Shown here one piece after another: positions 6,431-32,000 of a DNA stretch of 32,000 bases. Within the stretch, counting starts at the first letter, position 1; the number at the start of each line of letters is the position of its first letter. The notes below the pieces were generated by a model that had not been told where the DNA came from, did not search any database, and saw nothing but the letters and a program-made list of their open reading frames with translations. The stretch lies in assembly GCF_001306055.1 (NCBI RefSeq), contig NZ_LGHJ01000017.1, positions 240,001-272,000 on the forward strand, written 5' to 3'. Origin of the DNA: Bellilinea caldifistulae (GTDB lineage: Bacteria > Chloroflexota > Anaerolineae > Anaerolineales > Anaerolineaceae). Both the position numbers and the translations under genes were made by a program.

Positions 6431-6634
6431 ATGGACTACCTGATGCGGTTTTTCAGAAATGTGCTGGTTTTGTTTTTGGTCGTGGGCGGGATGCTGCTGG
6501 TCTTGCTGCTCACCGGTCAGGGTGAGGCTTTGAACGTGTTTGGCTCGATGTTCGAGGTCTATGATGCACTGGGCATATTGCCGTATGTGTTGATTTTGCT
6601 GATATTGGCTGTTTTACCGAAACGGCGGAGGTAA
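6431..6634 (+). CDS. small two-TM membrane protein
   Basis: MDYLMRFFRNVLVLFLVVGGMLLVLLLTG...GILPYVLILLILAVLPKRRR. GGAGG lies upstream of the ATG at 6431. Confidence 0.55.
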   Translation: MDYLMRFFRNVLVLFLVVGGMLLVLLLTGQGEALNVFGSMFEVYDALGILPYVLILLILAVLPKRRR

Positions 6635-6670
6635 AGGGCTGAACGAGGTGGTATGGCGTTTCGACATCAC

Positions 6671-6705
6671 AAAACGAACCGGCAAATTTTGCCGCTTCGT
6701 TTTTG
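6671..6705 (+). terminator. intrinsic terminator-like hairpin
   Basis: AAAACGAACCGGCAAA / TTTGCCGCTTCGTTTT is a 16 bp stem with one mismatch, followed by a T run. It lies directly after the 6431-6634 ORF. Confidence 0.6.
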
Positions 6706-6728
6706 GGACGTGCGGGGAGGAGTGAGGC

Positions 6729-7619
6729 ATGAATGCCCTGGATTTGTTCTGCGGTGGTGGTGGGGCTGGTCTGGCGATGGCACGCTTGGGGCTTGAGCCG
6801 CTGGGGGTGGATCGGGATGAGAGCGCACTGGAGGTTTACCGGCATGTGGGTACAACAGTGCGGGGAGATGGGGCGCATCTCGACCCGCTTGCTGTGTGGG
6901 AGGAGAATCTACCGCCCTGGTTGATCTGGGCGTCTCCACCCTGTCAGCCGTGGAGCGAAGGGAGGCGCAATCGGGGCTTGCTGTGGGGCTTTGAGACGAC
7001 CGGCGGTAAACTCCTGTTGGAGCCCTTGCGTTGGGCAGAGGCACTTAAGCCGGAGTGGGTGGTGGTGGAGAACGTGGATGGATTGCCGGATGAGCAAATC
7101 GTGCCGCTCACGGATGGGCTGGCCAGGCAGTTTGCCTTTGTCAGCATCCTGCGCTTGAACGCACGGGACTGGCTTCCGCAGAAACGAGGGCATGTGTTTG
7201 TGATTGGCGGTCCCGCTCCGGTGGTTGAACCGGCGGGAGCGGGTGGAAAACGCTTTGGTGATATTCTGGATGGACATGACGCCGAACCGGTGAAAGCCAA
7301 TCACCTGCGCTACGCCCTGCGCAAGCGATTCGATGTGCCGATTGTGACACTGGATGACGTACTGCCAACGGTGACGACCCGACCGTACAGCCAGCGGTGG
7401 ACGGCGTTCGTGATGACCGAGCGGGGTAAACTGCGCTTCCCAACGTTTCTGGAAGCGGCACGGGCGCAGGGTTTCCCGGATGAGCATCCTCTTCATGACC
7501 TGTACCGAAGGCATCCACAAGTTGCCTGGCGTTTACTGGGCAACGCTGTGCCGGTGCCTCTGGCAGAGTCAGTATTGCGGGTACTCATTGGAGCGGGCGA
7601 TGAGGGTGGTGGGGGGTAA
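6729..7619 (+). CDS. dcm: DNA (cytosine-5)-methyltransferase
   Basis: Motif I DLFCGGGG, motif IV PPCQPWS, motif VI VVVENV, motif VIII QKRGHVFVIG, motif X LGNAVPVPL. Confidence 0.9.
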   Translation: MNALDLFCGGGGAGLAMARLGLEPLGVDRDESALEVYRHVGTTVRGDGAHLDPLAVWEENLPPWLIWASPPCQPWSEGRRNRGLLWGFETTGGKLLLEPLRWAEALKPEWVVVENVDGLPDEQIVPLTDGLARQFAFVSILRLNARDWLPQKRGHVFVIGGPAPVVEPAGAGGKRFGDILDGHDAEPVKANHLRYALRKRFDVPIVTLDDVLPTVTTRPYSQRWTAFVMTERGKLRFPTFLEAARAQGFPDEHPLHDLYRRHPQVAWRLLGNAVPVPLAESVLRVLIGAGDEGGGG

Positions 7620-7658
7620 TTGCATGGCGAAACAAATCGGAATTGTTTGGGAGCGAAA

Positions 7659-8129
7659 ATGAGTTACGCCTTTCGCAAACACGACTACAACCTGGACGAC
7701 TTTGACCGTTGCCCGGAACACGGCTGTGTGATGATGCAGGTACAGGACTTGCCGCCGGTGTGTTTGATTGAGTGGCTGGTCAAGAACGCTGCCGAGCGCA
7801 GGGTGCGGGACGTGATTCCGCGTGAGCCGGTCAATCCGGTGGAGGCGGGACTGCCGGGGGTGGTACTGGACAACGGCTTTCTGCTGCCGGTGCGCAAGGC
7901 GGTGGATGTGGCATCGAGGAGACCGGACGGCGAGGTGAACGAGAGCATCGTGGGCTGGCGGGTGACGGACATTCTCTACATGCGGGGGGAGAATCAAGAG
8001 TTGGTGGGGGTAGAACTGCTGCCGGACGGGACGGTGGTGGACGAGGATCCGGGTTTTCTGCTGTATCTGGACATGCAGATACTGCTCTACCTGCTGTTCG
8101 ATGAGGAAATCCGCAAGTGTGAGCCGTGA
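7659..8129 (+). CDS. hypothetical protein
   Basis: 156 aa from the internal ATG, with coding-like third-position GC. No nuclease or Vsr motif recognised. Confidence 0.45.
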   Translation: MSYAFRKHDYNLDDFDRCPEHGCVMMQVQDLPPVCLIEWLVKNAAERRVRDVIPREPVNPVEAGLPGVVLDNGFLLPVRKAVDVASRRPDGEVNESIVGWRVTDILYMRGENQELVGVELLPDGTVVDEDPGFLLYLDMQILLYLLFDEEIRKCEP

Positions 8130-8280
8130 GGTAAAATGACCGTACCCGGAAACTGGCGGAACGGATTGCTTGCCGTAAAATCCGGCGGGGATACCGCTTT
8201 TCGGCAGGGTGAGGGCAGGGTTGCGGGAAAAATCTTATCCGTACCATTGTGCCAGGAAAAAATAGGGGGGTTGCAGGCAC

Positions 8281-8326
8281 AAGGGTACGCTTGTGGTAAG
8301 GTAGCGGAAGGGTACGCTTGTAATAT
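8281..8326 (+). promoter_or_regulatory. two 14 bp direct repeats abutting a -10-like TAATAT
   Basis: AAGGGTACGCTTGT occurs at 8281-8294 and 8308-8321. TAATAT at 8321-8326 lies 18 nt before the ATG at 8344. Confidence 0.45.
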
Positions 8327-8343
8327 ACTGACATATCCCGCTT

Positions 8344-9072
8344 ATGCAAAAAGTGAGACCAATTCGTAGTGACTTGTGGAGACGTGTCGAAAATGCCTTG
8401 CAAATTCTGGCGGAGGGAGTTTCCCTGCGGGTTGAGGTGGAGTACCGCATGGGAATACACGGCGGGGCTTCTAAACGCCTGTTCGATACCCTGATTGCGG
8501 AGGGATTTGTCGAGCAGTGGCTTTTGCCAATGAACCGCTTTACTTACGGTGTCGTTCGCCTTACAGAGTTAGGAGCCGACTTCACCATGCGGGAGTACGG
8601 CATCGCAATAAACCCTTCCGAGTGGGATGTTCTTGTCCAAAAACACAACGCCGAAGAACACGCCAATCACGCCTTTGCCATCCTGTTGTTTGCCTACCAT
8701 GCTCGCAGACGGGGCTGGCGGGTGGAAGTGTGTCCGCCGGTGGACAATCCGCTGGTCGAGCCGGATGTGCTGGTCGAGAAGGGCAGCGATCGGATTTATG
8801 TCGAAGTGGAAGTTTTACGCAATCCCCGCAAACTCCGAGACGGTGCAGATAACACCTGGGTACGCAAGTGGCGCAATCAGCGGAATTTTCAAGGGCGGGT
8901 GGCGGTATGCACCCTGACGCCCAAACGGATGCAGGGAATACTCCGCTATCTCAAACTGCGCTATCCGGGAGTGGCCACCGAACTGACCACGCTGGCAAAG
9001 CAGCCGGATAGTGACCTGTGGCTGGAACGCTGGAACTGGCCAAACGAGTTTTCGATGCGAGGGTATCGGTAG
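8344..9072 (+). CDS. wHTH plus PD-(D/E)XK-like protein (replication-relaxation-like or restriction-endonuclease-like architecture)
   Basis: N-terminal LFDTLIAEGFVEQWLLPMNRFTYGVVRLTELG is wHTH-like. The C-terminal part has HANHAFAILLFAYHARRRGWRV followed by EPDVLVEKGSDRIYVEVEV...K. Confidence 0.4.
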   Translation: MQKVRPIRSDLWRRVENALQILAEGVSLRVEVEYRMGIHGGASKRLFDTLIAEGFVEQWLLPMNRFTYGVVRLTELGADFTMREYGIAINPSEWDVLVQKHNAEEHANHAFAILLFAYHARRRGWRVEVCPPVDNPLVEPDVLVEKGSDRIYVEVEVLRNPRKLRDGADNTWVRKWRNQRNFQGRVAVCTLTPKRMQGILRYLKLRYPGVATELTTLAKQPDSDLWLERWNWPNEFSMRGYR

Positions 9073-9076
9073 GGGG

Positions 9077-9122
9077 TTGACAAATTGTGTAATATTGTGT
9101 ATCTTGTAAGCAAGATTGTGTA
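9077..9122 (+). promoter_or_regulatory. promoter with three ATTGTGTA operator-like repeats upstream of the antitoxin gene
   Basis: TTGACA (9077-9082), a 17 nt spacer, then TATCTT (9100-9105). ATTGTGTA occurs at 9084, 9094 and 9115, giving spacings of 10 and 21 bp. Confidence 0.6.
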
Positions 9123-9138
9123 TTAGCGAGGTTATCTC

Positions 9139-9414
9139 ATGGAACGCTATCAGGTCTTGCTGGAACCGGAACAGAAAGAGCGCATTCAGCGTCTGGCTGC
9201 GCTGCAACGGCGGTCTGCTGCCAGCGTGCTGCGTCAGGCTTTGGACATTGGGCTGGATGCACTGGAAGGCAACGATGAGGTGTGGGAGCGGCGGATGGAA
9301 ATTCTGTCCAAGAACCGCAAACGCATGAAGAACCTGCCGCTGATTGAACTGGATTTGGTCAACGATGCCCGGCAGGAACGGGAGGAGGAGATTGAGCAAA
9401 CATGGCGGTTGTGA
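9139..9414 (+). CDS. vapB: RHH (CopG/VapB-type) antitoxin
   Basis: MERYQVLLEPEQKERIQRLAALQRRSAASVLRQALDIGL fits an RHH fold pattern. It overlaps the downstream PIN gene by 13 nt. Confidence 0.7.
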   Translation: MERYQVLLEPEQKERIQRLAALQRRSAASVLRQALDIGLDALEGNDEVWERRMEILSKNRKRMKNLPLIELDLVNDARQEREEEIEQTWRL

Positions 9415-9833
9415 TTGACGCAAACATTGCCCTGGCTTTGTTCCTGCACCTGCCGTACACCGAACAGGCTTACCGCCTGATGGATCGTCTGCGGGAACGG
9501 CGGAGCGCCGTTCTGTCGCCGGTGTTGTGGGAGTACGAATGTTTGAGCGGTTTTCATCGAGCGGCGCAGTTAGGAGCAATCCGCCCCGAAGATGCGCGGG
9601 AGTTTATGGCTGACCTGCTGGCGTTGGAGATTGAGCGAGTAACGCCGACTGTTGAAAGTCATCATGCCGCCCTGCGCTGGGCGGAACGAATGGGACAGAG
9701 CAAAGCCTACGATGCCCAGTATGCAGCCCTGGCGGAGCAGTACGGGACGGAGTTGTGGAGCGCAGACCAGCGGCTGGTCAACACCCTGCAAGCACAGGGA
9801 GCAGGTTGGGCGCATTGGATTGGGGAGGTGTGA
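9402..9833 (+). CDS. vapC: PIN-domain toxin (VapC family)
   Basis: MAVVIDANIALALFL carries the N-terminal acidic Asp motif. 143 aa, with the conserved-looking YDAQYAALAEQ segment and the typical antitoxin-toxin gene order. Confidence 0.8.
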   Translation: MAVVIDANIALALFLHLPYTEQAYRLMDRLRERRSAVLSPVLWEYECLSGFHRAAQLGAIRPEDAREFMADLLALEIERVTPTVESHHAALRWAERMGQSKAYDAQYAALAEQYGTELWSADQRLVNTLQAQGAGWAHWIGEV

Positions 9834-9834
9834 G

Positions 9835-10355
9835 GTGGCAGTCGTTACACGCAAAGGTTTGAAACTGGCAGCCCGCAACCTGGCAGCCTTGCCGTTCAGG
9901 GTTTTGCTGTTTGCGTTTGAGTGGGTGTTGCGCCTGACGATCATCGCCGTACTGGTCTTTGTGCTGGCTGTTGGCGGGGTGGGCTGGTACTTCTACGCCG
10001 TCAAAGCCAATCAGCCGATGCAGATTGACCCGCGCTTTGCCCGGACACTGCCGCCGGAAGGGATGACCTTCGGGAGTTCTGGCAAGACCGCTTTGCCGGG
10101 TGGGAGAAGATTGACGAACTCCGCTATGATATGGGGGTATCAAAAAGCGATGATAATTGTCGCTTTGTAGGGTTTGTCTTATTTCCCGCCTATCAAATCC
10201 TGGCTCCCTCCCTGCGGGTGTATTTCGTGCGCACCCAGCCCTGAACAGCCGAAGCCGAATCGTGGATTCGGGGGATAAAAGGCATCATTGCGCCGGAGGA
10301 TTTGCCATTTCTCGATGCCTGGAGGTGGCAGATCGAGAACGAGTCATGGTGGTAG
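9835..10355 (+). pseudogene. decayed paralogue of the membrane protein encoded at 25669-26133
   Basis: GTG start with a GGGGAGG RBS. TM segment, then KANQPMQ...EGMTF, matching KGNQPMQ...KGMTYFEF of the other copy. Similarity continues in another frame after about 10072 (REFWQDRFAGW...) and across an in-frame TGA at 10242-10244 (...PEDLPFLDAWRWQIENESWW, stop at 10353-10355). Confidence 0.55.
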
Positions 10356-10471: not shown

Positions 10472-11448
10472 TTTACATGAGTTCAGGATAAGGGGCTCCC
10501 TGGCGTAGACTTGGATTTACCAAAACAAGCCTTCCAAGGAGCCCCCGATGGATAGTCAAATTGAATCGTTCTCTGAGCTCGATGATTTTTGCCAATCTTT
10601 TCTGCCTGTCTGGCGAAAACAATTGTTGAGCGCAGGTGAAATTCAGCGGCAGCGTGAAAGAAGCCTGAGCATGAGTAAGGTCATGACTATTTTGATCCAT
10701 TTTCATCAATCACACTATCGTAATTTCAAAGCGTACTACACCGAATATGTGCTGGAACGCCTGCGCGCTGAATTTCCTGGTCTGGTCAGTTATAACCGTT
10801 TTGTCGAGTTTATTCCTTCCGTCCTGGTTCCGTTGTGTGTGTACCTGCGCACACGCTGTCTGGGAACTTGTACAGGCATTTCGTTTATCAATTCAACCGC
10901 TTTGGCGGTCTGCAAAAATCCCAGAATCCACTCTCATAAGGTCTTTGCTGGACTGGCAGCGCGTGGCAAAACCTCCACCGGCTGGTTTTTTGGCTTCAAA
11001 CTTCATCTGGTTTTCAACGACCGCGGCGAATTACTCAATTTGATGCTCACTCCGGGCAATGTGGATGACCATAAACCTGTTCCTAAGTTGGCTCAGCGCC
11101 TATTTGGTAAGCTGTTTGGAGACAAGGGTTACGTCTCCCAACAGCTGGCGCAACAATTGCGTGAGATGTTCAATGTGCAGCTCATTACTAAGCTGCGCGC
11201 CAACATGAAGAACCAACTCATGCTGCTCACAGCGACCGGCTGCTCCTGCGTCGTCGCGCGATCATCGAGACGATCATCGATCAGTTGAAAAACATCTCGC
11301 AGATTGAGCATTCCCGGCATCGCAGTGTCACTAATTTCTTTGTCAATGTGCTGTGTGGTTTGATTGCTTATTGCCGTCGACCCATCAAGCCGTCGCAGGG
11401 CTTGGACAGTTATCTGCCCTTGCCCGTCTAACCCGAACTCACGTTACC
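10472..11448 (+). mobile_element. IS982-family insertion sequence
   Basis: Roughly 977 bp. Imperfect terminal inverted repeats with core ACATGAGTTCAGG (10475-10487) versus the reverse complement of CCCGAACTCACGT (11432-11444). Candidate 5 bp target duplication ATAAC at 10467-10471 and 11449-11453. The internal DDE transposase is of the IS982 type. Confidence 0.8.
10548..11431 (+). pseudogene. IS982-family transposase, frameshifted near 11230-11236
   Basis: The first frame gives ...[19 protein letters not shown]...GDKGYVSQ...[14 protein letters not shown]. The expected C-terminus [38 protein letters not shown]... is in the -1 frame and ends at 11429-11431. Confidence 0.8.
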
Positions 11449-11868: not shown

Positions 11869-13680
11869 GTGAAACCTTTACCATTGATTGCAACCAAATT
11901 TTTCCCGCTGCCATCGCCCGGGAAACAATTGAAGCGGCAGGGTCTTATCTCTCGCATGGAAGAGGGTTTGGCGGCGCGCCACCCACTGATTTTGATTTCG
12001 GCTCCCGCCGGCTATGGGAAAAGTACTCTCGTTGCGGAGTGGCGGGAGAGCACCCAACGAACAATCACCTGGCTTTCTCTGGATGATTCCGATAATGAAC
12101 CTTCGCGTTTTCTTGTTTACTTGATTGCAGCACTTCAAAATGCGGACAAATCGATCGGGATGGAATTGATGACCATGCTGGAAGCCAATCAACTCCCGCC
12201 TCGCGAAACGATCATAGCATTGTTAACTGAAGACTTGTTGGCTTCTAGGAATTCGTTGGTGTGCGTATTAGATGACTTCCAGGTGATCCAGGACCCCAAT
12301 GTCCTCGACATTCTGCAAGACCTCATCGTTCATCCCCTTCCGTTACAATTCGCCATTGTCACCCGGGAAGATCCCGCCCTGCCTTTGGGTCGCTTGCGCG
12401 CAAACGACCGGTTAACCGAGATCCGCGCTTTGGATTTACGCTTTACGAAGGAAGAAACGGCAGCATTCTTTCGAGAGGTGATGAACATTCCACTTACCGA
12501 GCGTGACCTTTCGCTTTTGCTGGAACGCACCGAAGGTTGGGTGGCGGGGCTTCAGCTGGCTGGTCTTTCCATGCAGGGAGGAAAAGACCCATCTGAGGTA
12601 ATTGCCTCCCTGAGCGGGAATAACCGCCATATTCTCAGTTATCTCACCGAGGAAGTTCTCAAGCAACAAGAAACTTCCGTACAGGAATTTCTTCTATATA
12701 CCTCGATCCTCTCAAAATTTAATGCGGATCTATGTAATGCCGTTACCCAACGAAGTGATTCGGCTGTCCTGCTGGAAGCAATGCTGGCTTCCAACCTCTT
12801 CTTGATCCCATTGGATGACGAAGGATTCTGGTATCGTTACCACCATCTTTTTGCGGAATTGCTTTTCAGTTATCTGCTCCGTTCCCAGCCAGGCCTGCTG
12901 AAAGAATTACATCATCGCGCCGCAGAGTGGTTTGAGAGCCAATCCATGCCAGCGGAAGCTATCGACCACGCTCTGGCTGCAAGAGATTTCGCCCGCGCTG
13001 CGACCCTGCTTGAAATAAATACCTGGACATTGTTGAATCAAGGATATGTTCGCCGTATCGAAGCCTGGATGCAATCCCTGCCTGTCGAGTGGCGTACCCA
13101 AAGCCCACGGACAAACCTCAGCTTTGCCTGGATGTATCTCCTGCGGGGAAATTTCATCAAAGTAGTACCCCATCTCCAGGAGGCTGAAACTGCGCTGGAG
13201 AACGCACCGGAGGCAGATGACTTGAGAGCAGAGTGCCATGCATTGAGAGCTAACCTCTTACAATCCCAGGGTGAGATTCCTGCCGCAATTGAAAACGCCA
13301 AAGAGGCTATAAAGATCGTCTCTCCGGGAAATGTTCGCCTGTTAGGGTTGGCGAATCTGGGATTGGGAGCAGGGTATCGACAAGCGGTGCAGTTTGATCT
13401 GGCAGTAAATGCCCTGCAGCAAGCAATTCGTTTCAGCCGTGAATCAGGCGACTCTGTCACGGGTGCATTAGCAGCCACGCATCTCATCCTGATGAGTCTC
13501 CAGCATGGGCGATTGAATCTTGCAGAAGCAGTGTCTTCGCAGATGATCGAACTAATGGAGTGCATCGGGGAGGCGGTGCCACCCATCATCGGCGCAATCT
13601 ATGGGGCGTTAGGGTTAGTCTATTACGAGCGAAATCAGATCGAGCAGGCGCGTGACCATTATTTACGGGGAATTCATTAA
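11869..13680 (+). CDS. MalT/LuxR-type large ATP-dependent regulator, N-terminal part (P-loop NTPase plus TPR-like repeats), ending at an in-frame TAA
   Basis: PLILISAPAGYGKSTLVAEW is a Walker A motif and LVCVLDDFQ is Walker B-like. The long helical repeat region is typical of MalT-like STAND regulators. GTG start with no RBS, preceded by TATAAT at 11856-11861, so the mRNA may be leaderless. Confidence 0.8.
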   Translation: MKPLPLIATKFFPLPSPGKQLKRQGLISRMEEGLAARHPLILISAPAGYGKSTLVAEWRESTQRTITWLSLDDSDNEPSRFLVYLIAALQNADKSIGMELMTMLEANQLPPRETIIALLTEDLLASRNSLVCVLDDFQVIQDPNVLDILQDLIVHPLPLQFAIVTREDPALPLGRLRANDRLTEIRALDLRFTKEETAAFFREVMNIPLTERDLSLLLERTEGWVAGLQLAGLSMQGGKDPSEVIASLSGNNRHILSYLTEEVLKQQETSVQEFLLYTSILSKFNADLCNAVTQRSDSAVLLEAMLASNLFLIPLDDEGFWYRYHHLFAELLFSYLLRSQPGLLKELHHRAAEWFESQSMPAEAIDHALAARDFARAATLLEINTWTLLNQGYVRRIEAWMQSLPVEWRTQSPRTNLSFAWMYLLRGNFIKVVPHLQEAETALENAPEADDLRAECHALRANLLQSQGEIPAAIENAKEAIKIVSPGNVRLLGLANLGLGAGYRQAVQFDLAVNALQQAIRFSRESGDSVTGALAATHLILMSLQHGRLNLAEAVSSQMIELMECIGEAVPPIIGAIYGALGLVYYERNQIEQARDHYLRGIH

Positions 13681-13737: not shown

Positions 13738-14523
13738 TTGTTAATGGCTGAAGATAATTTCATTGACGCGAAAAAGAATCTGCAAGATGCCGAGGTATTG
13801 GTCCAGGCAGGTGCCCCAGACTGGTTGAGACCCGGTCTGATTGCGCATCAGGTTCAATATTTTCTTGCAACCGGCAATTTGCCGGAAGCAGAAGCAATAT
13901 TACGGCAGAGTGGCGTCACACCAGACGGGCGAATCACTCATGCCACAGATGAGATTTATCTTGCTTTTCTACGCATCAAGTTGACGCGTGGAAAAGAAGC
14001 AGACCTCCGTGAAGGAGCAGAACTTGCGGGGAGGATTCTCACACTAGCAGAAAGTGGCCAACGGAACAAAACAACCATATTGGCTTCCATGTTGGGAGCT
14101 TTGTTTCACGAACGATTAGGAGATACAAGATCTGCCTCTATGTGGCTCGAACATGCACTGGTATTAGCTGAACCTGAAGGATATGTACGCCTTTTTGTGG
14201 ACGAGGGAATGGAAATTGTTGCATTGCTAAAGCGATTAACACCGACGGATTATATTCGGACCCTGCTGGCGGCGTTCCCTGCGGTAGAGAGATCTGTCGT
14301 TAGACCTCGGCCGGTAGATGGAATCATCGAACCACTCAGTGAGCGTGAAGTGGAAGTATTGCGATTGTTGGCGCAAGGGATGAAATATGCCGAGATTGCA
14401 GAGTATTTGTTCGTGAGTATGAATACAGTACGTTTTCACGTCAAGAGCATTTACGGAAAGCTAAATGTCGATAAACGGGTTAAAGCGGTTGAGCGGGCAA
14501 GGGAACTAAAACTGATCGAGTAA
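13738..14523 (+). CDS. C-terminal part of the same MalT/LuxR regulator (TPR-like repeats plus LuxR-type HTH)
   Basis: Same reading frame as 11869-13680. The C-terminal LSEREVEVLRLLAQGMKYAEIAEYLFVSMNTVRFHVKSIYGKLNV is a LuxR/GerE HTH. Confidence 0.8.
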   Translation: MLMAEDNFIDAKKNLQDAEVLVQAGAPDWLRPGLIAHQVQYFLATGNLPEAEAILRQSGVTPDGRITHATDEIYLAFLRIKLTRGKEADLREGAELAGRILTLAESGQRNKTTILASMLGALFHERLGDTRSASMWLEHALVLAEPEGYVRLFVDEGMEIVALLKRLTPTDYIRTLLAAFPAVERSVVRPRPVDGIIEPLSEREVEVLRLLAQGMKYAEIAEYLFVSMNTVRFHVKSIYGKLNVDKRVKAVERARELKLIE

Positions 14524-25406: not shown

Positions 25407-25668
25407 CAGTCTATGAAGGATATCGGGGTGGTTGACGGATGAAAACCAAGGAGAGTTTTTCCCAAGGAAAATTCGTACCAGTGACTCATCAGGTCGATCG
25501 TCGTCAATGACCATCCCTCTCATGCGATAGCGCTGAATTTGATCCCAGATGGATAGAACTGGTTTGAGAAAAAGATCAACCTCGGTGAGCATGCAAAGTA
25601 GAGGCGCGGTGGGTACAATTGATAAGATTATCCCCAGAATTCTCAAGGCAACAAAATCAATTTGGGGA

Positions 25669-26133
25669 TTAATTATTTGTGTATTGTACTGATCTAAAAT
25701 TACATCCATAGACCGACTGCTTCCCCACCATAGTCCAGGATAATCTTTCAATCGTATTCCACCAAATGCCAGGCATTTCATACCACTTAGCATTTGCGAC
25801 TTCCTTAGGGATATCTGGATCTGGGGCGGTGCCTCGCGCAAGAGCTCCATCCGGATGGATACCAACCTCCGTATAAACAAATGAATAAATTGGACCCAGG
25901 GTGGCTAAAGATAACATCATACCCCACCCGCACCGGGAAGGTTCTGCCGTTTTTGCGGCATCAATCCGATCAGCAACGAATTCAAAGTAAGTCATCCCCT
26001 TCGGAGCTTCAGGAACCTGCATAGGCTGGTTTCCCTTGTAGGCAACGAATAAAATACTGGAGCAAATCGCCAGGATGACAGTAGTTTTGACAACCCATCC
26101 AATCAACTTAAGAATAACTACGATGAATTTCAT
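25669..26133 (-). CDS. membrane-anchored hypothetical protein; intact paralogue of the 9835-10355 pseudogene
   Basis: N-terminal TM, then KGNQPMQVPEAPKGMTYFEFVADR...WWNTIERLSW. AAGGAGAA RBS. Lies 7 nt downstream of the RHH gene. Confidence 0.65.
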   Translation of the reverse strand: MKFIVVILKLIGWVVKTTVILAICSSILFVAYKGNQPMQVPEAPKGMTYFEFVADRIDAAKTAEPSRCGWGMMLSLATLGPIYSFVYTEVGIHPDGALARGTAPDPDIPKEVANAKWYEMPGIWWNTIERLSWTMVGKQSVYGCNFRSVQYTNN

Positions 26134-26140
26134 TTTCTCC

Positions 26141-26362
26141 TTAATTCTCTTGATTCATCTGATACTGATCCTCAGGTCGGGCACCTTCTCGTAGGACCCG
26201 GTTATAACGAATCTCCTCGCGATACATTCGATCAAGAGCAACCTCAATCACATCGCTTTCACTCCGTCCCATAACGCTTGCCATCGCTCTTAATTGACTC
26301 ACGCCTTCTGGGCTAATTCGAAAAGATCGTACTGGTTTTTTCGCGGAATTTGTTTTCGGCAT
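26141..26362 (-). CDS. ribbon-helix-helix (CopG-like) DNA-binding protein
   Basis: VRSFRISPEGVSQLRAMASVMGRSESDVIEVALDRMY shows the beta-strand, helix, helix pattern of RHH proteins. Confidence 0.65.
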   Translation of the reverse strand: MPKTNSAKKPVRSFRISPEGVSQLRAMASVMGRSESDVIEVALDRMYREEIRYNRVLREGARPEDQYQMNQEN

Positions 26363-26393
26363 GCTCGTTTTCCTTATCGGTTAGTTTATCTAT

Positions 26394-26422
26394 AATGTAA
26401 TACTCTAGTATTTCTTTGTCAA
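26394..26422 (-). promoter_or_regulatory. promoter of the RHH gene with an operator palindrome in the spacer
   Basis: On the minus strand: TTGACA (plus-strand coordinates 26417-26422), a 17 nt spacer, then TACATT (26394-26399). The 14 bp palindrome AATACTCTAGTATT (26399-26412) occupies the spacer. Confidence 0.55.
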
Positions 26423-26516
26423 GTTAATTTCCACTTTTTTCCTAATTTCGTCAAATATGTCCCCCTAGGATAGGTGCTTTCTTCTTGCTATGATTAGAGT
26501 CACAACCAAATATCTG

Positions 26517-26640
26517 TTCGGTCGCTGATAATCATCAGCTGTTCCAAAGAATCCTTGGAGCGACCATCAGCTTCTTCCCTATCTACACAACTTACGTGCG
26601 TGTAAATATGCGTTGAGATCTAGATGGTCGCTTTTGTTTT
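26517..26640 (+). promoter_or_regulatory. structured leader with mutually exclusive helices and a terminator-like end (candidate attenuator or riboregulator)
   Basis: GGTCGCT (26520-26526) pairs with AGCGACC (26559-26565). AGCGACCATC (26559-26568) pairs perfectly with GATGGTCGCT (26623-26632), which is followed by TTTGTTTT. GCTGAT (26524-26529) can pair with either ATCAGC at 26534-26539 or ATCAGC at 26566-26571. Confidence 0.4.
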
Positions 26641-26680
26641 AACTTACTTTCGAACCCGTTAACCGGAAAAGGAGAAAAAA

Positions 26681-27241
26681 TTGAAAGAAATTCCAGTCTC
26701 AAAACGTAATCTGATCATTGCCGTCATCTTGGCAGTTGTCGTTGCTTTAGGTATCCTGGTGATCGAAAACTGGCCACTTCATACGGAGCAAGGTTCAGCA
26801 GCAGCAACCAACGAAGATCGTCTGGTTTCTACTGCAGCGGTCAATGCTATCGAGCAGGTCTTCCAGGTGAACTATCAGGAAGGAAAAGAAGCCTGGCTTG
26901 AGCGTATCTGCGAGGTAAGCACTCCCGCTGGATGTGAGCTGTTTTCGGCCGGCGCAGACCGTATGTGGGAAAAATACGTGGATGCCAAATCTGTGGTCAC
27001 AGCTGCCTCTCAGGCAGCAGAAAAAGTAGCAGACAATGGTTTTGAGCAAGTCTGGAAGATGACCATCACGCTATCTTCTCCCCTACCAGGCAGCAATAAA
27101 ACCCAGGATACAGCATATGTTGTTCTCGCGAAAACAGAAAGTGGTTGGAAGTTTGATCGTTTCCTGATGGAAGAAGAAATCAATGCCATTCTCGCTCGGG
27201 GAAAAACTCCCACCACAACTGTAGAAGAAGGAAAGAAGTAG
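26681..27241 (+). CDS. membrane-anchored protein with a possible NTF2-like ectodomain (cassette gene 1)
   Basis: TTG start with an AGGAG RBS. TM segment LIIAVILAVVVALGILVI, then AAVNAIEQVFQVNYQEGKEAWLERICEVSTPAG...AYVVLAKTESGWKFDRF. This is reminiscent of SnoaL/TcpC/VirB8-like folds, by pattern only. Confidence 0.6.
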   Translation: MKEIPVSKRNLIIAVILAVVVALGILVIENWPLHTEQGSAAATNEDRLVSTAAVNAIEQVFQVNYQEGKEAWLERICEVSTPAGCELFSAGADRMWEKYVDAKSVVTAASQAAEKVADNGFEQVWKMTITLSSPLPGSNKTQDTAYVVLAKTESGWKFDRFLMEEEINAILARGKTPTTTVEEGKK

Positions 27242-28533
27242 TGAAAAGAATCTTCCTGATCATTGTCGTTATGACCTTGCTCATACCATCTGCTGTTTAT
27301 GCTCAGGGCACTGATCCCTGGTCAGAAGTTTTTCAGCCGGATGGAAATCTGAATCCTGATTTGATTGATCTGGGAGTTACCACAGATCACCCCGATTGGA
27401 TGTCAATTGAACTGCCTTTTGGCCAGTCCATTGATCTTGATGCTAATTATCACCGCTATCAAACGCCTAGCGGGAATATCGTCGTCTTACCCTCTGCCTC
27501 GACGTTATTTTTTATGGCCATGAACTCCCAAGAAAGCGGTTTGACCGGCTCTTATGGATCACTGGGAAATGGTTACGGCAGCCTGATCTCTTTTCTTGGG
27601 CTTGTTGCCGGCGATAATCTGGATTGGAGCAAGGTACAGGCGGAACATCCAGAGTACACCAGCCCGGATCAATTCTGGGGAGCGGTTCTCAATGGGCAGC
27701 AAGATGTATGGACCTATTTCTCCGGGTGGGGATTCATCACAACCCTGCTTCAAATGACTTGGAATGATGGCGCTCTTCGCTCATTGTATTTGTTGTATCT
27801 GAATGGTTCACAAAACTGTGCGGCCATTCCAGGGGGGTGCTCGGGAATTGTCACCCCACCTCCTCCCCCAAGGGAGTGTCCTGATCCAACGGTTTCTATA
27901 CAACAACCTGTCCTCGTTATTCAAAAAACTGCGCCGAACAATCCCCTGGTTGTGGGACAAGATACCGAAAATCGCCGCGGTGCAGATATCCAGGTCAGGG
28001 TGACAGTTCCTCCAGTGATCTTCACCTGGTATGAGCCGATTTATGAAGAAAGAGATGTTTGCCGCTCAGCCAGTTCCGGAGAAACCGCCAATTGTAATAC
28101 CGGAGCTGGATCAGCTATGAATGATGGTGTTTCAGATACAGAAATGGTATTCAAGGAATGCCGGACACATGTAGAACATCTACCGGATGCGGTAGCATCA
28201 CTGCAAGCTACTGCAGCATTGGATGGTGCCAGCCAGGATTGGATCACAGGTAGATTAGGGCAAACCCATTATGAAGCCTTCGTCCACCAGGCAAATTTCA
28301 CCCTGATTCCCGGAATTGGTTCATGGACAGGCGGATGTGATGGCGGCGGCACCTGCACTGCTACTGGCCAGGCACTCCGTGTTCCATTTGCAGATCCAGG
28401 AACCTTCAACTTGCGAATGGACGTAGTGACCACGGGGACTCGCTTCCGCGGAGTTCCAATCACCCAACCGAGGCGAGTAGGGATTGATGGAACGATGCAA
28501 GTATATGTGGCTCTTCCGGCGCTGGTGCCTTAA
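27241..28533 (+). CDS. secreted Cys-containing two-domain protein with a poly-Pro linker (cassette gene 2)
   Basis: GTG start overlapping the upstream stop. Signal peptide MKRIFLIIVVMTLLIPSAVYAQG. Internal linker TPPPPPREC. No known domain recognised. Confidence 0.65.
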   Translation: MKRIFLIIVVMTLLIPSAVYAQGTDPWSEVFQPDGNLNPDLIDLGVTTDHPDWMSIELPFGQSIDLDANYHRYQTPSGNIVVLPSASTLFFMAMNSQESGLTGSYGSLGNGYGSLISFLGLVAGDNLDWSKVQAEHPEYTSPDQFWGAVLNGQQDVWTYFSGWGFITTLLQMTWNDGALRSLYLLYLNGSQNCAAIPGGCSGIVTPPPPPRECPDPTVSIQQPVLVIQKTAPNNPLVVGQDTENRRGADIQVRVTVPPVIFTWYEPIYEERDVCRSASSGETANCNTGAGSAMNDGVSDTEMVFKECRTHVEHLPDAVASLQATAALDGASQDWITGRLGQTHYEAFVHQANFTLIPGIGSWTGGCDGGGTCTATGQALRVPFADPGTFNLRMDVVTTGTRFRGVPITQPRRVGIDGTMQVYVALPALVP

Positions 28534-28542
28534 AAGGTCAAA

Positions 28543-28662
28543 GTGCAGATTTTATCGATTGCGGTCGGTGTGTTGCTGACAGTCGTCCTGGGTTTCATGG
28601 CCGTCATCTATTTACTACTGGTGATTGGGTTGTGGTGTCCACGAAACGATTATGACAAGTAA
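28543..28662 (+). CDS. 39 aa single-TM peptide (cassette gene 3)
   Basis: GTG start. VQILSIAVGVLLTVVLGFMAVIYLLLVIGLWCPRNDYDK. It fills the gap between genes 2 and 4, and its stop overlaps the AGGAGG RBS of gene 4. Too short to appear in the ORF track. Confidence 0.4.
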   Translation: MQILSIAVGVLLTVVLGFMAVIYLLLVIGLWCPRNDYDK

Positions 28663-28676
28663 GGAGGCATTGGTTC

Positions 28677-29360
28677 ATGACAGATTATTTTGTCGTCTTT
28701 GGAGATTTTCTCACTGCTCTGCCTACTTACCTGTTGAACGGCGTCCTCGCAACCGTTTACTGGCTTGGCGAATCTGGAGCTGCTCTAGTAAGTATTCTTT
28801 GCGCAGGGTTGATCATCCGTTTCGTGGATCAACGTGTGCAATCCAGAGCAGCTTTCCGACCAGGACGAAGTGGGCGGGAGGCTGCTACTCCGGATTTATA
28901 CACAGCTCAAATCACAACGGCGATTATTCTGGTGCTTTGGGTAATCAGCCAATGGGGGATGGGAGCACCGGTTCCCTGGCTGGGTGCAGCAATGTGGATC
29001 GCTGGCACAGTCATCCTTTTACTGGTGCACATGCAGGAACATACCCTTTTGTGGAATATGAAATCGGGAATTGCGATTTATTCCCTGGCCGTCATCGGAA
29101 GCCGGCTCTACCTGGCATACACCGCTCAATTATCAGCAGATCAATGGGCTGCACTGATAGGGACATCTGAAAGCGCATCAGCAGTGATTGCGAATACACG
29201 CGGAAATGTAACTACGATTATTCTTTGGGCTTTATGGTTGGTGATCCCGTTAGGTTATTTTGCCATGTTGCTGCAGCAAGTTCTGATCAATCCGATGTCG
29301 TTGGTCAATCCATTGGCAGGCGCCAGCGAGTTGATCAATCGCTATCGAACCAGAAGATAG
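28677..29360 (+). CDS. polytopic membrane protein (cassette gene 4)
   Basis: Strong AGGAGG RBS. 227 aa with about 6 hydrophobic segments. Confidence 0.7.
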   Translation: MTDYFVVFGDFLTALPTYLLNGVLATVYWLGESGAALVSILCAGLIIRFVDQRVQSRAAFRPGRSGREAATPDLYTAQITTAIILVLWVISQWGMGAPVPWLGAAMWIAGTVILLLVHMQEHTLLWNMKSGIAIYSLAVIGSRLYLAYTAQLSADQWAALIGTSESASAVIANTRGNVTTIILWALWLVIPLGYFAMLLQQVLINPMSLVNPLAGASELINRYRTRR

Positions 29361-29512
29361 GGTGATAGATGAAACCAGCACACAAAATCGTGGGCTTGCT
29401 TGATTTATCCCAAAGGGACGCTTCGCGTACTCAACCTTTTTAGGTGAGAGTCTTATGAACGTCGGAAATTCTTGATTAACGCCAGATTCTATTTCAACGA
29501 TTGGAGGTCAAT

Positions 29513-29866
29513 ATGTCACAACTGATGGATTTGCTGCGCGGACCTGCTTTAGGCGTGATTGTCATGATCATCCTGATGGCAGGCGTTCTCATCATCACTG
29601 CATTTGCGGCGCTGATTGCCCAGATGAGTCTCTTGTTCCGGCTTCGACCTTGGAATACTTCCGAAAAGAGAAGTGAAAAAGGGAATGAAGGTTACCCACA
29701 AGAAACATTTGAGCAACGTTCCGCAACTCGTGAAGGCCAGCGAGCATCATCTCCCCATCGCCAGAGTTCACCATCGGAACATCCCCGCAGGGGACAGGTG
29801 GTGGTTGTCGAACCAAATACGAATGAGGTGGTTGATGCAATCTGGTGGGAAACAGTGAAGCAATAG
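29513..29866 (+). CDS. bitopic membrane protein with a disordered basic/Ser-rich tail (cassette gene 5)
   Basis: GGAGG RBS 5 nt before the ATG at 29513. TM segment ALGVIVMIILMAGVLIITAFAALIA, then a tail rich in E, K, R, S and P. Confidence 0.6.
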   Translation: MSQLMDLLRGPALGVIVMIILMAGVLIITAFAALIAQMSLLFRLRPWNTSEKRSEKGNEGYPQETFEQRSATREGQRASSPHRQSSPSEHPRRGQVVVVEPNTNEVVDAIWWETVKQ

Positions 29867-29904
29867 CAATCCAGGGCTTCTCTTGCGCAAGTAAGAGCAG
29901 CCTC

Positions 29905-31212
29905 ATGAATTTACCAGCTGGTCAAGTTGGCGAATTGATGAGGCAGAACGCCAAGTACGGAGAAAAGAGAACGATGATTATTGGAAAACTGACCGAAAAA
30001 ATACCCTGGCTGAGAACGAAGGACTCTCTATCCATTCCAAATGACCTGGAAGTGGAAGGCACAGAGCTACATTTCAACGACCGAAATGAGCTGGACTATC
30101 TGGTCTTTCGTGTCAAAGAGCGGGAAGGCCCGCGGGAATATCAGGGATACCGGGCGGTCCGGCTGCTGCAATTACGCTACATCTCTCTGGAAGCTCGCCG
30201 GGATGCCGGGCTGCTACAAAAGATGCTTACGGTCTCGCGTGGTTTGTATGGCGCTCAAGTGGATCTGGTTTATCTGGCTGCCGGCGTTTTTAAGAACCCC
30301 AATGTTGGAATTGTTCAATGCTATGGAGTCGCTGCGTTTTCGCCAAAGAAAGATGAAGCTATCCAGCGTTCTTTACGTGATCTGTCTGCCTTACGAGCCG
30401 GATTGGTGGGTGCTTACCGTCAAATCCGCCTTGAACCACTTTCAACTGAAGTGGCTCAATGGTTAGCGCGTGCTCTGGAGCAGATGCCTTATGCCATTGT
30501 GGCTGTCGGGCATCCAGATCCACGTGAAAACGCCCACGGGGGTGATTCTTCGATGCGTGACCCATTAGTGTCTGGAAGTCAGGGTGCACAACAATATTCC
30601 ATTCAACAGAGTGAACTGCTCTTTCGCGGTATGAGCAGCCTGAAAGAAGAATTCTTGTTGATGCTGCTCACAAATCATGTTCGTCTTGAAGATATTACTC
30701 GAATGTTGGCCGGTATGTTGGAAGACACCTCCGTTTACGCTTCCCGTCAGTTGGGAACCCGGGCTGTTTCGTTTGGAATCAGCCCGCCGGCCATTTTGAC
30801 TGGGGGACTTGCTGAAAACGCATCCAGGTCTTATGGCACAAACCATTCGAGCGGCGTCACCCAGGGTGAAGCTGCCACAGATGGCGTCGCAAATTCAGAA
30901 GGCCAGGCGCACACCACGGGTCATGCCAGCACTCGCGGTTGGGCGCACACGGTTGGAATCTCCGAAACCGATACGATTGGTTTATCTTCCACGGTTGGAA
31001 CTGCAGTCAGTCAAGGGACAGCTCATACCGAAGGAACAGCAGTAACCGATGGAACGTCCCACTCAGATTCGTCCGGTGTAGCGAACTCCCATACGGATAG
31101 CTCTTCCTATGGCGTGAATGGCGGTGTGAGTGGGAGCATTGCTCCGGCCGGCGTAGGTTTATCGGCTAACGTGTTAGCATATGGCAACCGGCCAGCCGGG
31201 GCACCCTGCTGA
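29905..31212 (+). CDS. soluble protein with an unknown roughly 310 aa N-terminal domain and a T-x-G-x-A-x hexapeptide-repeat tail; 3' end possibly altered by the IS110 element (cassette gene 6)
   Basis: No TM segment, signal peptide or P-loop. The repeat tail runs from about 30850 to 31140. An alternative GTG start is at 29845. The composition changes just before the stop at 31210-31212. Confidence 0.65.
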   Translation: MNLPAGQVGELMRQNAKYGEKRTMIIGKLTEKIPWLRTKDSLSIPNDLEVEGTELHFNDRNELDYLVFRVKEREGPREYQGYRAVRLLQLRYISLEARRDAGLLQKMLTVSRGLYGAQVDLVYLAAGVFKNPNVGIVQCYGVAAFSPKKDEAIQRSLRDLSALRAGLVGAYRQIRLEPLSTEVAQWLARALEQMPYAIVAVGHPDPRENAHGGDSSMRDPLVSGSQGAQQYSIQQSELLFRGMSSLKEEFLLMLLTNHVRLEDITRMLAGMLEDTSVYASRQLGTRAVSFGISPPAILTGGLAENASRSYGTNHSSGVTQGEAATDGVANSEGQAHTTGHASTRGWAHTVGISETDTIGLSSTVGTAVSQGTAHTEGTAVTDGTSHSDSSGVANSHTDSSSYGVNGGVSGSIAPAGVGLSANVLAYGNRPAGAPC

Positions 31213-31506
31213 GTGCGGGGCGCCTTTCGCATTCCAGGTTTTAGGGGTAGTACCCCTGGTGGTTGAGTGAACGGGGACGCTGCCCCCGGGTGCGTGGCGT
31301 TTGGGCAGGCCGTCTTCGCGTATGGGAAGTCCTTGGACATGCCCGCTCTCGCGTTTGGCCGCCCGTTCGATTCCGCTCACCTGAGATCGGTCAGGCTACC
31401 ACCCTGATCCAAGCTCGAAACTGTGTGTGATGCCATGCCCAATCTGGAACGCGCCCGGACCGGCTGGCCGGTGCTTGCCAGCACACATCCAAAGGAGGCT
31501 GGACAT
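31213..31506 (+). ncRNA. non-coding left end of the IS110 element; candidate bridge (seek) RNA region
   Basis: About 290 bp without a credible ORF, upstream of the IS110 recombinase gene. Several short GC-rich hairpins are present (AGGGG-TAGTA-CCCCT, CGGGG-ACGCTG-CCCCG, TCAGG-CTACCAC-CCTGA). The assignment rests on family knowledge only. Confidence 0.3.
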
Positions 31507-32000
31507 ATGCTGCCATCTGATTCTACACCAAAGCGCAGCGAAGCTGCGCACCGTTTCGTGGGACTGGACGTCCACAAGCACTACCTGGTGGCCATCGGCA
31601 TCGACCGCCAGGGGACCCAGGTCTTTGGACCTCACCACGTGCCCATCCCCAGGCTGGAAGAGTGGATCGCCAAGCACCTCACCCGTCAGGACGCGGTGGT
31701 ACTGGAGATGACTACCAACACCTGGAAGATGCACGACCTCTTGGCTCCGCACGTGTTTTCGGTGACAGTGGTGCATCCGCCGCACGTGGCGCTGATTGTG
31801 CGCGCCCAGGTCAAGACGGACAAGAAGGCTGCCCTCACCCTGGCGCAGCTCCACGCTGCCGGACTCTTGCCGGGTGTCTGGGTGCCGCCTCAGGAGGTGC
31901 GTGAGCTGCGGGCGCTGGTTGCCCAACGCCACAAGATGGTGCGCCTGGGAGCGACCACCAAGAACCGCCTGCACGCCCTGCTGCATGCCAGGCACATCCA
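31507..32000 (+). CDS. IS110-family transposase (DEDD recombinase), N-terminal part, open at the window end
   Basis: AAAGGAGG RBS. MLPSDSTPKRSEAAHRFVGLDVHKHYLVAIGIDRQG...AVVLEMTTNTWKMHDLL...VVHPPHVALIVRAQVKTDKKAALTLAQL...VRELRALVAQRHKMV. It is absent from the ORF track because no stop falls inside the window. Confidence 0.85.
   Translation, partial: MLPSDSTPKRSEAAHRFVGLDVHKHYLVAIGIDRQGTQVFGPHHVPIPRLEEWIAKHLTRQDAVVLEMTTNTWKMHDLLAPHVFSVTVVHPPHVALIVRAQVKTDKKAALTLAQLHAAGLLPGVWVPPQEVRELRALVAQRHKMVRLGATTKNRLHALLHARHI

Follow-up and report, generated by a model that had tools for sequence, protein, structure and literature searches.

To what larger unit six adjacent genes of no recognised family belong, and what they do, is the question raised by a locus in the genome of Bellilinea caldifistulae. 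The locus lies in a stretch of 32,000 nt, referred to here as the window (assembly GCF_001306055.1, contig NZ_LGHJ01000017.1, positions 240,001 to 272,000 of the forward strand), and comprises six open reading frames (ORFs), g1 to g6, that run in the same direction towards the end of the window. An earlier note, made from the sequence alone, described them as a six-gene cassette that loosely recalls Gram-positive conjugation scaffolds. All six ORFs are present at the positions given there, but the cassette is not self-contained. Gene order in intact relatives indicates a cluster of at least 17 genes, of which these six make up the 5' part and a Tad/Flp pilus machine the other half. We consider it close to certain that the six genes are the front module of an Anaerolineae island with the gene order set out below, that g6 belongs to a HerA/DUF87-type ATPase, and that the window copy has been cut by an IS110-family insertion sequence and is inactive. 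The observation made in the earlier note is partly confirmed, and its interpretation is partly supported.

Anaerolineae are core and often dominant members of the communities in anaerobic digesters and wastewater sludge. Aggregation by means of their Tad pili has been proposed as the reason for their prevalence (PMC4877987). New in the present work are a conserved, undescribed front module with a ~1,200-aa HerA-class motor on an Anaerolineae Tad-type island, and the exchange of the whole island between genera at ~95% DNA identity. If the motor moves DNA, the island would be a relaxase-independent machine for gene exchange in bacteria and a link between type IV filaments and systems of the type IV secretion (T4SS) or Ced kind. 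If it serves pilus biogenesis, the island would represent a new subtype of Tad system, suited to monoderm or atypical envelopes. In both cases NF033849, a protein family without a function, gains a genomic context and a testable role.

Gene order in intact relatives

A genome scan returned 141 relatives of g6, and 80 loci (designated by L numbers) were kept. Nearly all came from Anaerolineae-type metagenome-assembled genomes (MAGs) or isolates, the exceptions being a few MAGs labelled as other phyla. Upstream genes were counted in the 52 loci with sufficient DNA 5' of the gene 6 homologue, and downstream genes in the 43 loci where g6 is complete and followed by 4 kb of DNA or more. Upstream, g4 was found in 51 of the 52 loci, g2 in 50 and g1 in 48. 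A154, the gene of a 154-aa protein on the opposite strand, was present in 35, g5 in 30 (by hidden Markov model, HMM) and g3 in 20, a count limited by the shortness of the query. The most conserved partner of the ATPase is g4, with 96–99% amino acid (aa) identity among close relatives. The order A154(-), RHH(-), g1, g2, (g3), g4, g5, g6, cpaB, tadZ, tadA, where RHH stands for the gene of a putative ribbon-helix-helix repressor, was held down to 25–50% aa identity. It can be read intact from g1 to tadA in three cultured strains, Flexilinea flocculi TC1, Levilinea saccharolytica KIBI-1 and Leptolinea sp. HRD-7. Among complete or nearly complete genomes, the island lies at ~494–516 kb of AP024710 (Leptolinea sp. 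HRD-7), ~1.083–1.104 Mb of DF968181 (Flexilinea flocculi) and ~2.475–2.497 Mb of OY969938. The counts for g1, g2 and g4, together with ~95% identical copies in several genera, agree with the earlier view of the six genes as an envelope-associated, mobile unit.

The genes that follow an uninterrupted gene 6, which had been named as a point to check, are cpaB, tadZ and tadA. They lie directly 3' of g6 in 37 of the 43 loci, with gaps of 7–59 nt along the g6-cpaB-tadZ-tadA series in L015, and Pfam recognises RcpC/SAF, AAA_31 and T2SSE (TadA/CpaF, PF00437) among their products. Farther in the 3' direction come tadB, tadC, a gene for an ICMT/PEMT-like methyltransferase, pilin-sized ORFs of 48–72 aa, tadE and tadG. 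TadE (PF07811) and Tad (PF13400) domains were found in L002, L053, L085, L087 and L089, adjoining the 48–72-aa ORFs. For the Anaerolineae loci, no gene was identified as that of a prepilin peptidase. The combination of Tad genes with a HerA-class motor did not turn up in literature searches, and we know of no described Tad locus that carries a front module of g1, g2, g4 and small transmembrane (TM) proteins with a ~1,200-aa HerA-class ATPase whose linker is Ser-rich with period 6.

The methyltransferase, an ICMT/PEMT-family (Ste14-like) membrane protein of ~190 aa, is an unusual member of a pilus operon; in 17 or more Anaerolineae loci its gene immediately follows tadC (L039, 18780–19382; L050, 18848–19420; L085, L087 and L089, 10001–10573). 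In the clade of the window a second Tad-like set follows the first (L085, 10925–18838; L087, 12998–19986), with genes for a ParA-like protein, CpaB, a second T2SSE ATPase, two platform-size proteins, two ORFs of 48–56 aa, TadE and TadG. There is also a hot spot for cargo inside the operon, either between tadA and tadB or after the methyltransferase gene (L001, 17162–19002; L085, 3666–7896; L087, 10794–12295). Its cargo is of the toxin-antitoxin or defence type (DUF6577 with AbiEii; Mrr_cat/ATPase_2 with HTH; AbiEii/AbiEi), and the insertion of such genes accounts for a ~3-kb gap in close relatives.

Interruption of gene 6 in the window

In direct family searches of the window proteins, NCBIfam alone recognised g6. 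Residues 83–431 matched positions 1–360 of the 1163 in NF033849 ("serine-rich protein") with E 8.5e-121 and 404 bits, a score that falls below the 650-bit cut-off because the protein is cut short. Intact relatives match the model over their whole length (799 bits for P0011). The DNA similarity between the window and ~30 related loci ends at 31172. Base-level alignment places the breakpoint at 31172/31173; beyond it the GC content is 62%, and the last 12 codons and the stop codon of the g6 ORF are IS110 DNA. Aligned with the 1,207-aa protein of locus L015, the window g6 corresponds to residues 1–443, the N-terminal 37%; an intact g6 of 1,207 aa is found in Leptolinea sp. HRD-7.

What remains in the window is the N-domain and the first third of a period-6 Ser/Thr/Gly linker, and the ATPase domain is absent. 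The protein had been described as 435 aa long with a hexapeptide-repeat tail. The repeat is real, but the protein is a fragment of one of ~1,200 aa. Likewise, it had been noted that no VirB4-like ATPase was visible, whereas g6 itself is, by homology, the beginning of an ATPase of the HerA/VirB4 superfamily; the ATPase was missed because the IS110 cut had removed the motor domain. A search of the rest of the 32-kb window for the remainder of g6 or for Tad genes found none. The window copy cannot work as encoded, since no ATPase domain and no Tad gene are left in it, and to judge from its sequence it is a pseudogenised remnant inactivated by IS110.

The identification of the flanking element as IS110 has held up. 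The 164-residue transposase fragment has 37–39% identity to genes annotated 'IS110 family transposase' at 97–98% query cover. A tblastn search found 329 plasmid records, with E values of 1e-17 to 5e-19 for matches with this annotation and down to 4e-21 for unannotated ones; no relative of solved structure was found by sequence. Between the insertion point and the transposase ATG lie 334 nt of non-coding DNA (31173–31506), which have no match in Rfam. Such a region of IS110 elements encodes the guide ('bridge') RNA.

The motor encoded by full-length gene 6

The full-length protein of ~1,200 aa consists of an N-terminal alpha/beta domain, a Ser/Thr/Gly linker of ~300 aa and a C-terminal P-loop ATPase. 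The linker (Ser 16%, Thr 13%, Gly 12%, Ala 11%) is predicted to be disordered, and its autocorrelation peaks at lags 6 and 12 (75 and 62, against a background of ~25). The Walker A sequence GD(T/S)GFGKS occurs in all 21 full-length relatives inspected (1,149–1,277 aa), and together with the EEA(N) Walker B it is of the HerA type.

Profile comparisons point the same way. On the C-terminal half of the L002 protein DUF87 scored 24.0 bits, above its cut-off of 23.2 bits. The domains found in 35 diverse full-length members were DUF87 (15), HerA_C (6), TraG P-loop (3), AAA_10 (2) and FtsK (2). When the PDB was searched with a profile of 19 C-domains, defence-type HerA/DUF87 ATPases were the best matches (8yho, 2.8e-8; 8wiv; 8ziq), and the HerA models of PADLOC matched partially, in the motor core only (~985–1153 of 1,207 aa). 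Models of the VirB4 kind stayed far below their cut-offs: TIGR00929 (VirB4) gave 12.5 bits against 643, TraC 11.2 against 567 and AAA_10 18 against 27.5. Because the HerA/DUF87 models score better and the VirB4 models fall so far short, we class g6 as a HerA-class member of the FtsK-HerA superfamily, which includes VirB4, and not as VirB4 itself. The hunch of a T4SS-like system driven by an ATPase was reasonable, but the enzyme is of the HerA type and linked to Tad genes, and is not a classical T4SS component.

The N-domain is widespread. It was found in 267 clusters when 1.84 billion representative proteins were searched, and in most matches longer than ~1,000 aa it lies within the first ~100 residues. 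The AlphaFold model of the window g6 has a pLDDT (predicted local distance difference test) of 52.7 overall and is confident at residues ~68–215 only. Its top Foldseek match, TrwK/VirB4 of R388, is non-significant (E 0.057) and was taken as a hint only. No phage record contained a relative of g6. A prophage origin of the island was considered and rejected, there being no relative of g6 in phage records and none of the ICMT-family gene in IMG/VR.

Genes and proteins of the front module

The coordinates of the block in the window are collected in Table 1.

Table 1. Positions of the front module, its regulator and the adjoining insertion sequence in the window.
Feature	Position	Strand	Description
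A154	25669–26133	-	154-aa bitopic protein, TM residues 3–21; first gene of the conserved block
RHH gene	26141–26362	-	73 aa, CopG/Arc-like putative repressor, divergent from the operon
Divergent control region	26363–26680	+	between the RHH gene and g1
g1	26681–27241	+	186 aa, bitopic, TM 10–28, alpha+beta ectodomain, two invariant Cys
g2	27241–28533	+	430 aa, secreted, signal-peptide-like N-terminus
g3	28543–28662	+	39-aa peptide, single TM
g4	28677–29360	+	227 aa, polytopic, four strong and one or two weaker TM segments (5–6 TM)
g5	ORF 29501–29866, likely 29513–29866	+	~117 aa, bitopic, charged low-complexity tail, directly 5' of g6
g6 fragment	ORF 29845–31212, likely start 29974, homologous part to 31172	+	no TM
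IS110-family element, left end	31173–32000	+	transposase ATG at 31507, runs past the end of the window

The genes had been described as tightly packed, and this holds for the first part of the operon. There, g1 and g2 overlap by 1 nt, gaps of 9 and 14 nt separate g2 from g3 and g3 from g4, and Shine-Dalgarno sites of the AGGAG type stand 5' of g1, g4 and g5. On corrected starts there is no overlap at g4-g5 or g5-g6. For g5 we prefer ATG 29513 to TTG 29501, because GGAGG lies 6 nt upstream of the former, and g6 likely starts at ATG 29974, because its homologues start at that Met. The corrected starts therefore leave gaps of ~150 nt between g4 and g5 and ~107 nt between g5 and g6.

In comparisons with relatives of 76–84% DNA identity, the ratio of nonsynonymous to synonymous substitution rates (dN/dS) was 0.03–0.3 for all six ORFs, and purifying selection also acts on the RHH gene and A154. 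The values by gene were 0.05–0.08 for A154, 0.06–0.2 for the RHH gene, 0.11–0.29 for g1, 0.03–0.09 for g2, 0.16–0.32 for g5 and, against L017 and L028, 0.09–0.21 for the 39-aa g3. Purifying selection and an order that recurs in more than 50 loci mark the six ORFs as real genes.

The topology assigned to each protein in the earlier note was reproduced: one TM segment in g1, g3 and g5, a signal-like N-terminus in g2, five to six segments in g4 and none in g6. The g2 protein had also been called secreted, two-domain and Cys-containing, in agreement with its N-terminus, its conserved Cys and an AlphaFold model (pLDDT 78.4) with two domains. In this model an alpha/beta N-domain (~25–200) is followed by a Pro-rich hinge and a Cys-containing C-domain (~217–423) with an immunoglobulin (Ig)-like beta-sandwich fold. 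At E<=0.001 Foldseek found no match to the model in PDB or BFVD; what it returned were generic folds of the Ig or fimbrial-adhesin kind. The N-domain as modelled appears to be novel. The g2 protein was also considered as a phage receptor-binding protein or a hydrolase, and both ideas were dropped in view of the generic Ig-like folds that Foldseek returned. Its homologues form 301 clusters, none with a Pfam domain, and one cluster of near-identical g2 proteins has 874 member sequences in public data.

For the other proteins, too, the statement that none belongs to a characterised family has stood up to database and profile searches. Profile searches of the PDB with the g1, g2 and g4 families found no match, nor any sequence signal for the NTF2/VirB8-like fold suggested for g1, and g1 to g6, the RHH protein and A154 had no usable family match in Pfam, PHROGs or PADLOC; A154 had none in NCBIfam either. 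Read from the sequence, neither g3 nor g5 contains the pilin motif G/xxxxEY.

The control region

The divergent regulator had been assigned to the RHH class. The match to an Arc-like repressor in PHROGs (E 5.3e-5) agrees with this, and the match to RHH_1 of Pfam is weak (E 0.041; 14.3 bits, below the 20.5-bit cut-off). The RHH gene adjoins A154 in 29 of the 52 loci. Between this gene and g1, an alignment of 15 loci shows a conserved extended -10 element, TGCTATGAT, at 26486–26494; transcription is predicted to start near 26500. The leader of ~180 nt contains GGTCGCT at 26519–26525 and 26625–26631, AGCGACC at 26558–26564 and a strong Shine-Dalgarno site before g1. In the same alignment the three heptamers are invariant and the core between them is variable.

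The leader had further been described as structured. Conserved blocks are indeed present, with a 10-nt inverted repeat (26559–68 and 26623–32), and compensatory changes occur at four pairs, but the covariation term reaches only -0.52, the folding energy does not stand out (minimum free energy z-score -1.6), and an Rfam scan of 25500–32000 at E<=1 gave no match. As the folding energy is not unusual, we do not call the leader a riboswitch. The GGTCGCT/AGCGACC elements could be operators of the RHH protein, an RNA switch, or both. Four loci carry an insertion between the RHH gene and g1, at the equivalent of ~26362–26461 in the window. Because it separates the RHH gene from what follows, the operon's own control region begins near 26461. 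The insertion measures 4.2 kb in L009, L013 and L035 (~2417–6657) and 5.4 kb in L003 (1241–6657).

Horizontal transfer and flanking genes

A block of 5.5 kb has 93–96% DNA identity between the window and Levilinea saccharolytica, Flexilinea flocculi and Leptolinea sp. HRD-7, and the same range is seen in Bellilinea and Ornatilinea MAGs. The stop codon of A154 marks the exact start of the similarity (window 25670–25690, ~30 loci), and the left flanks are mostly unrelated. Copies of ~95% identity in different genera with unrelated flanks indicate recent horizontal transfer, and dS values from 0.036 to 0.46 along the block point to mosaic recombination. Several MAGs hold two or three divergent copies of the cluster, which suggests that distinct types reside together. 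Examples are L012/L039/L054 (JAVSME01), L041/L051/L069 (CAYTHO01) and L032/L042/L044 (JBGSJZ01), in which the copies differ by 30–50% in protein.

The flanks were surveyed over ~6–10 kb in ~45 loci, and the 25 most frequent Pfam families among 101 flanking ORFs were considered. They are enriched in AbiE, CBASS (SMODS), pPIWI, Fic, ATPase_2/DUF234, transposase and toxin-antitoxin genes. Genes for RHS/YD-shell toxins adjoin the cluster in L001 and L002 only, 2 of ~85 loci, and a link to RHS toxins was rejected as a general feature. By gene content and surroundings, the island is classed as an accessory element of the Tad 'colonization island' type and not as a recognisable integrative and conjugative element (ICE).

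Related clusters on clostridial megaplasmids

With an intact ATPase as the query, a tblastn search of PLSDB found full-length 'serine-rich protein' genes on the Ruminococcus albus plasmid pRUMAL01 and the Alkaliphilus plasmid pB6464. On both, dnaE, primase and ssb genes lie directly upstream of the cluster on the same strand, followed by two hypothetical genes, a small TM ORF, the gene of a g4-like polytopic protein and the ATPase gene. The 3' part encodes CpaB-like, TadZ, CpaF, TadB, TadC and Flp proteins, an A24 peptidase and TadE. An ssb gene is also found 3' of the cluster in L002. The g4 HMM recognised the gene just upstream of the ATPase gene on pRUMAL01 (E 5.9e-7). Since g1 and g2 are not recognisable on the plasmids, the core shared across two phyla consists of a small TM protein, g4, g6 and the Tad genes. 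MOB-suite typed pRUMAL01 as 'mobilizable' and pB6464 as 'non-mobilizable'.

Comparison with known systems

The downstream half resembles Tad/Flp (type IVc) loci in having CpaB/RcpC, a TadZ/CpaE-like protein, TadA/CpaF, TadB, TadC, pilin-sized ORFs, TadE and TadG in the usual order. It differs in the added front module, the ICMT-family gene after tadC and, in the clade of the window, the second Tad-like set. Tad loci are known to move horizontally as single loci (PMC6668835), as does the island described here.

The archaeal Ups pili and the Ced/Ted importers offer a parallel in parts list and logic rather than in sequence. In Ced/Ted a VirB4/HerA-like ATPase is joined by a polytopic channel and small TM proteins, type IV pili are needed, and a relaxase is lacking (PMC9905601, PMC11868833). 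CedA with 6–7 TM segments would correspond to g4 with 5–6, CedA1/A2 to g3/g5 and CedB/CedD to g6, and both systems have a type IV filament for cell contact and ParA/MinD-type ATPases nearby, with no relaxase in Ced/Ted and none seen in the island or its sampled flanks. There is, however, no detectable sequence homology of g6 to CedD, whose model (NF053655) gave 17 bits against a 600-bit cut-off, in the Walker region alone, so that the resemblance is one of components. The island is moreover a single bacterial operon, and its g6 has no TM segment and a long linker.

Type IV pili also assist the T4SS of the IncI1 plasmid R64, as they do Ced, and the R64 thin pilus serves mating-pair contact (PMC12102498). 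R64 and the island share a type IV-filament pilus and a VirB4/HerA-superfamily ATPase on a mobile element. R64-type elements, in contrast, encode a full T4SS together with relaxase and coupling protein, and the flank survey of the island showed none of these.

Proposed function and alternatives

Our preferred reading is that the intact island couples a Tad pilus to a front module that translocates DNA. For this reading as a whole, identity and mechanism together, we estimate a probability of roughly 0.45. The mechanistic part, pilus-coupled DNA translocation by analogy with Ups and Ced, is tentative, at somewhat less than even odds. In this scheme the RHH protein would repress the divergent promoter. 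The products of g1, g2, g3, g5 and A154 would be inserted in, or exported across, a single membrane, where g4 would form a polytopic platform or channel, and a hexamer of g6 might dock on g4/g5 through its N-domain. The Tad half would build Flp-type pili that bring about contact with cells or surfaces, and the HerA-class motor would then move a macromolecule, most probably DNA, across the envelope at the site of contact, with no relaxase required.

DNA is favoured as the substrate for three reasons: the usual substrate of the superfamily is nucleic acid; the parts list parallels Ced/Ted in its polytopic channel, small TM proteins, ATPase, pili and lack of a relaxase; and the plasmid clusters adjoin ssb, primase and dnaE genes. 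No characterised monoderm Tad locus is known to need a HerA-class ATPase, and the front module therefore probably adds a translocation function. In Micrococcus luteus, Flp pili are reportedly required for DNA uptake. A stronger version of the reading would make the intact island a single-operon bacterial counterpart of Ups/Ced, with the Tad pilus for cell-cell contact and the HerA-class ATPase and g4 channel for relaxase-free import or export of chromosomal DNA, and would have the machine itself drive the spread of near-identical DNA among Anaerolineae genera and onto clostridial megaplasmids. We think this version unlikely; if true, it would amount to a new class of bacterial DNA-exchange apparatus.

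Several points weigh against DNA translocation. Characterised FtsK-HerA ATPases are mostly nucleic-acid translocases, yet members of the superfamily also move proteins (EccC/EssC of the type VII secretion system, T7SS) or extract pilins (VirB4), and g6 could have a substrate other than DNA. The docking of g6 on g4/g5 is read from the adjacency of their genes. Genes for DNA-binding proteins, nucleases, relaxases, coupling proteins or integrases were seen neither inside the cluster nor among the 25 commonest families of its flanks, a survey whose reach of ~6–10 kb does not prove that relaxase and coupling protein are absent from the wider element. Of g1 to g5, only g4 was detected on the clostridial plasmids. 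One distant copy lies among ordinary chromosomal genes. Six of the 43 loci, all of one subgroup, have g1-g2-g4-g6 without adjacent Tad genes, and the coupling of g6 to Tad is therefore not obligatory. Finally, Anaerolineae Tad clusters have been interpreted as adhesion or aggregation pili (PMC4877987).

That published interpretation leads to the rival that survives best, in which the island makes an adhesion or aggregation pilus only, no DNA is moved, and g1 to g6 form a lineage-specific biogenesis module. The module might anchor the pilus in the Chloroflexota envelope or pass it through, extract or retract pilins in the manner of VirB4, or send g2 out as an adhesin of the pilus. In favour, the Tad genes are of the canonical kind, the C-terminus of g2 has the Ig-like beta-sandwich of many adhesins, and no DNA-processing genes were seen nearby among the 25 commonest flank families. 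In digesters the Anaerolineae Tad clusters are highly transcribed (PMC4877987), and mobility as such fits as well, Tad loci being known to move horizontally and being plasmid-borne more often than other type IV filament systems (PMC6668835). Yet an extra HerA-class motor suggests an added function, the six loci without adjacent Tad genes have kept g1-g2-g4-g6, and the clostridial versions adjoin replication and ssb genes. On balance we hold the pilus-only explanation to be rather doubtful, if a serious one.

The earlier note drew a loose comparison with the scaffold of a conjugative T4SS of the Gram-positive type. Taken in full, this reading would place such a system on an ICE, with g1 in the place of VirB8/TcpC, g4 of VirB6 and g6 of VirB4. 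Systems of the MPF-FA/FATA classes do combine bitopic, polytopic and small TM proteins with a large cytoplasmic ATPase, the ectodomain of g1 is alpha+beta, and the ATPase is of the VirB4/HerA superfamily. The top Foldseek match of the g6 N-domain, the weak matches to VirB4_CagE, TraC and AAA_10 and the very recent horizontal transfer can be read in the same sense. Such a system is nevertheless improbable. The HerA models outscore the VirB4 models, the neighbours are type IV filament genes of the Tad kind, and neither the commonest flank families nor the annotated extended loci include a relaxase, a VirD4-type coupling protein, a cell-wall hydrolase or an integrase. The plasmid copies fit no better, with a 'mobilizable' typing at most. 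Because the ATPase is HerA-type and the flank families lack relaxase, coupling protein and integrase, we conclude that a Gram-positive conjugative T4SS is probably not present.

Of similarly low probability is a translocon for proteins, in which an FtsK-HerA ATPase, by the logic of EssC/EccC in T7SS or of the Tad-like Kil system, exports g2 or toxins. FtsK-like ATPases are established drivers of T7SS, g2 is abundant, conserved and secreted, and RHS/YD-shell toxin genes lie beside L001 and L002. These two loci are exceptions, however, g2 carries a Sec-type signal peptide of its own, and the cluster has no conserved effector family, of the WXG100/LXG type or otherwise.

Two further readings are very improbable, anti-phage defence built on a HerA ATPase and orphan ORFs that lie side by side by chance. 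The motor does find its best PDB and PADLOC matches among defence-associated HerA proteins, and defence genes abound in the flanks, but the matches are confined to the conserved motor core (residues 1010–1134), no SIR2, DUF4297 or nuclease partner adjoins it as in SIR2-HerA and DUF4297-HerA, g1 to g6 have no PADLOC match, and chance is excluded by the conserved order and by dN/dS well below 1. Classical HerA/DUF87 proteins, for their part, have no comparable N-domain, linker or Tad context, and the NF033849 model carries no functional annotation.

Other features of the window

An ORF of 143 aa at 9402–9833 (+), which falls in the high-GC part of the window and precedes the cassette by 16 kb, has 31% identity (E 1.8e-17) to a 165-aa protein of L002 that is encoded between a ParG-like gene and the A154 homologue. 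Positions 1–10000 have a GC content of 55–65% and a GC skew of +0.15 to +0.35, against 44–58% and ~0 in the rest of the window, and encode a ParA-type ATPase (2262–3050) and a C5 cytosine methylase (6729–7619). This part may be a different mobile element. A MalT/LuxR-type STAND regulator appears to be split into two ORFs, 11869–13680 (AAA_16 and TPR_MalT 2–149) and 13738–14523 (TPR_MalT 173–334 and GerE), which suggests a frameshift or a pseudogene. Just upstream of it, at 10548–11288, lies a gene for a DDE transposase.

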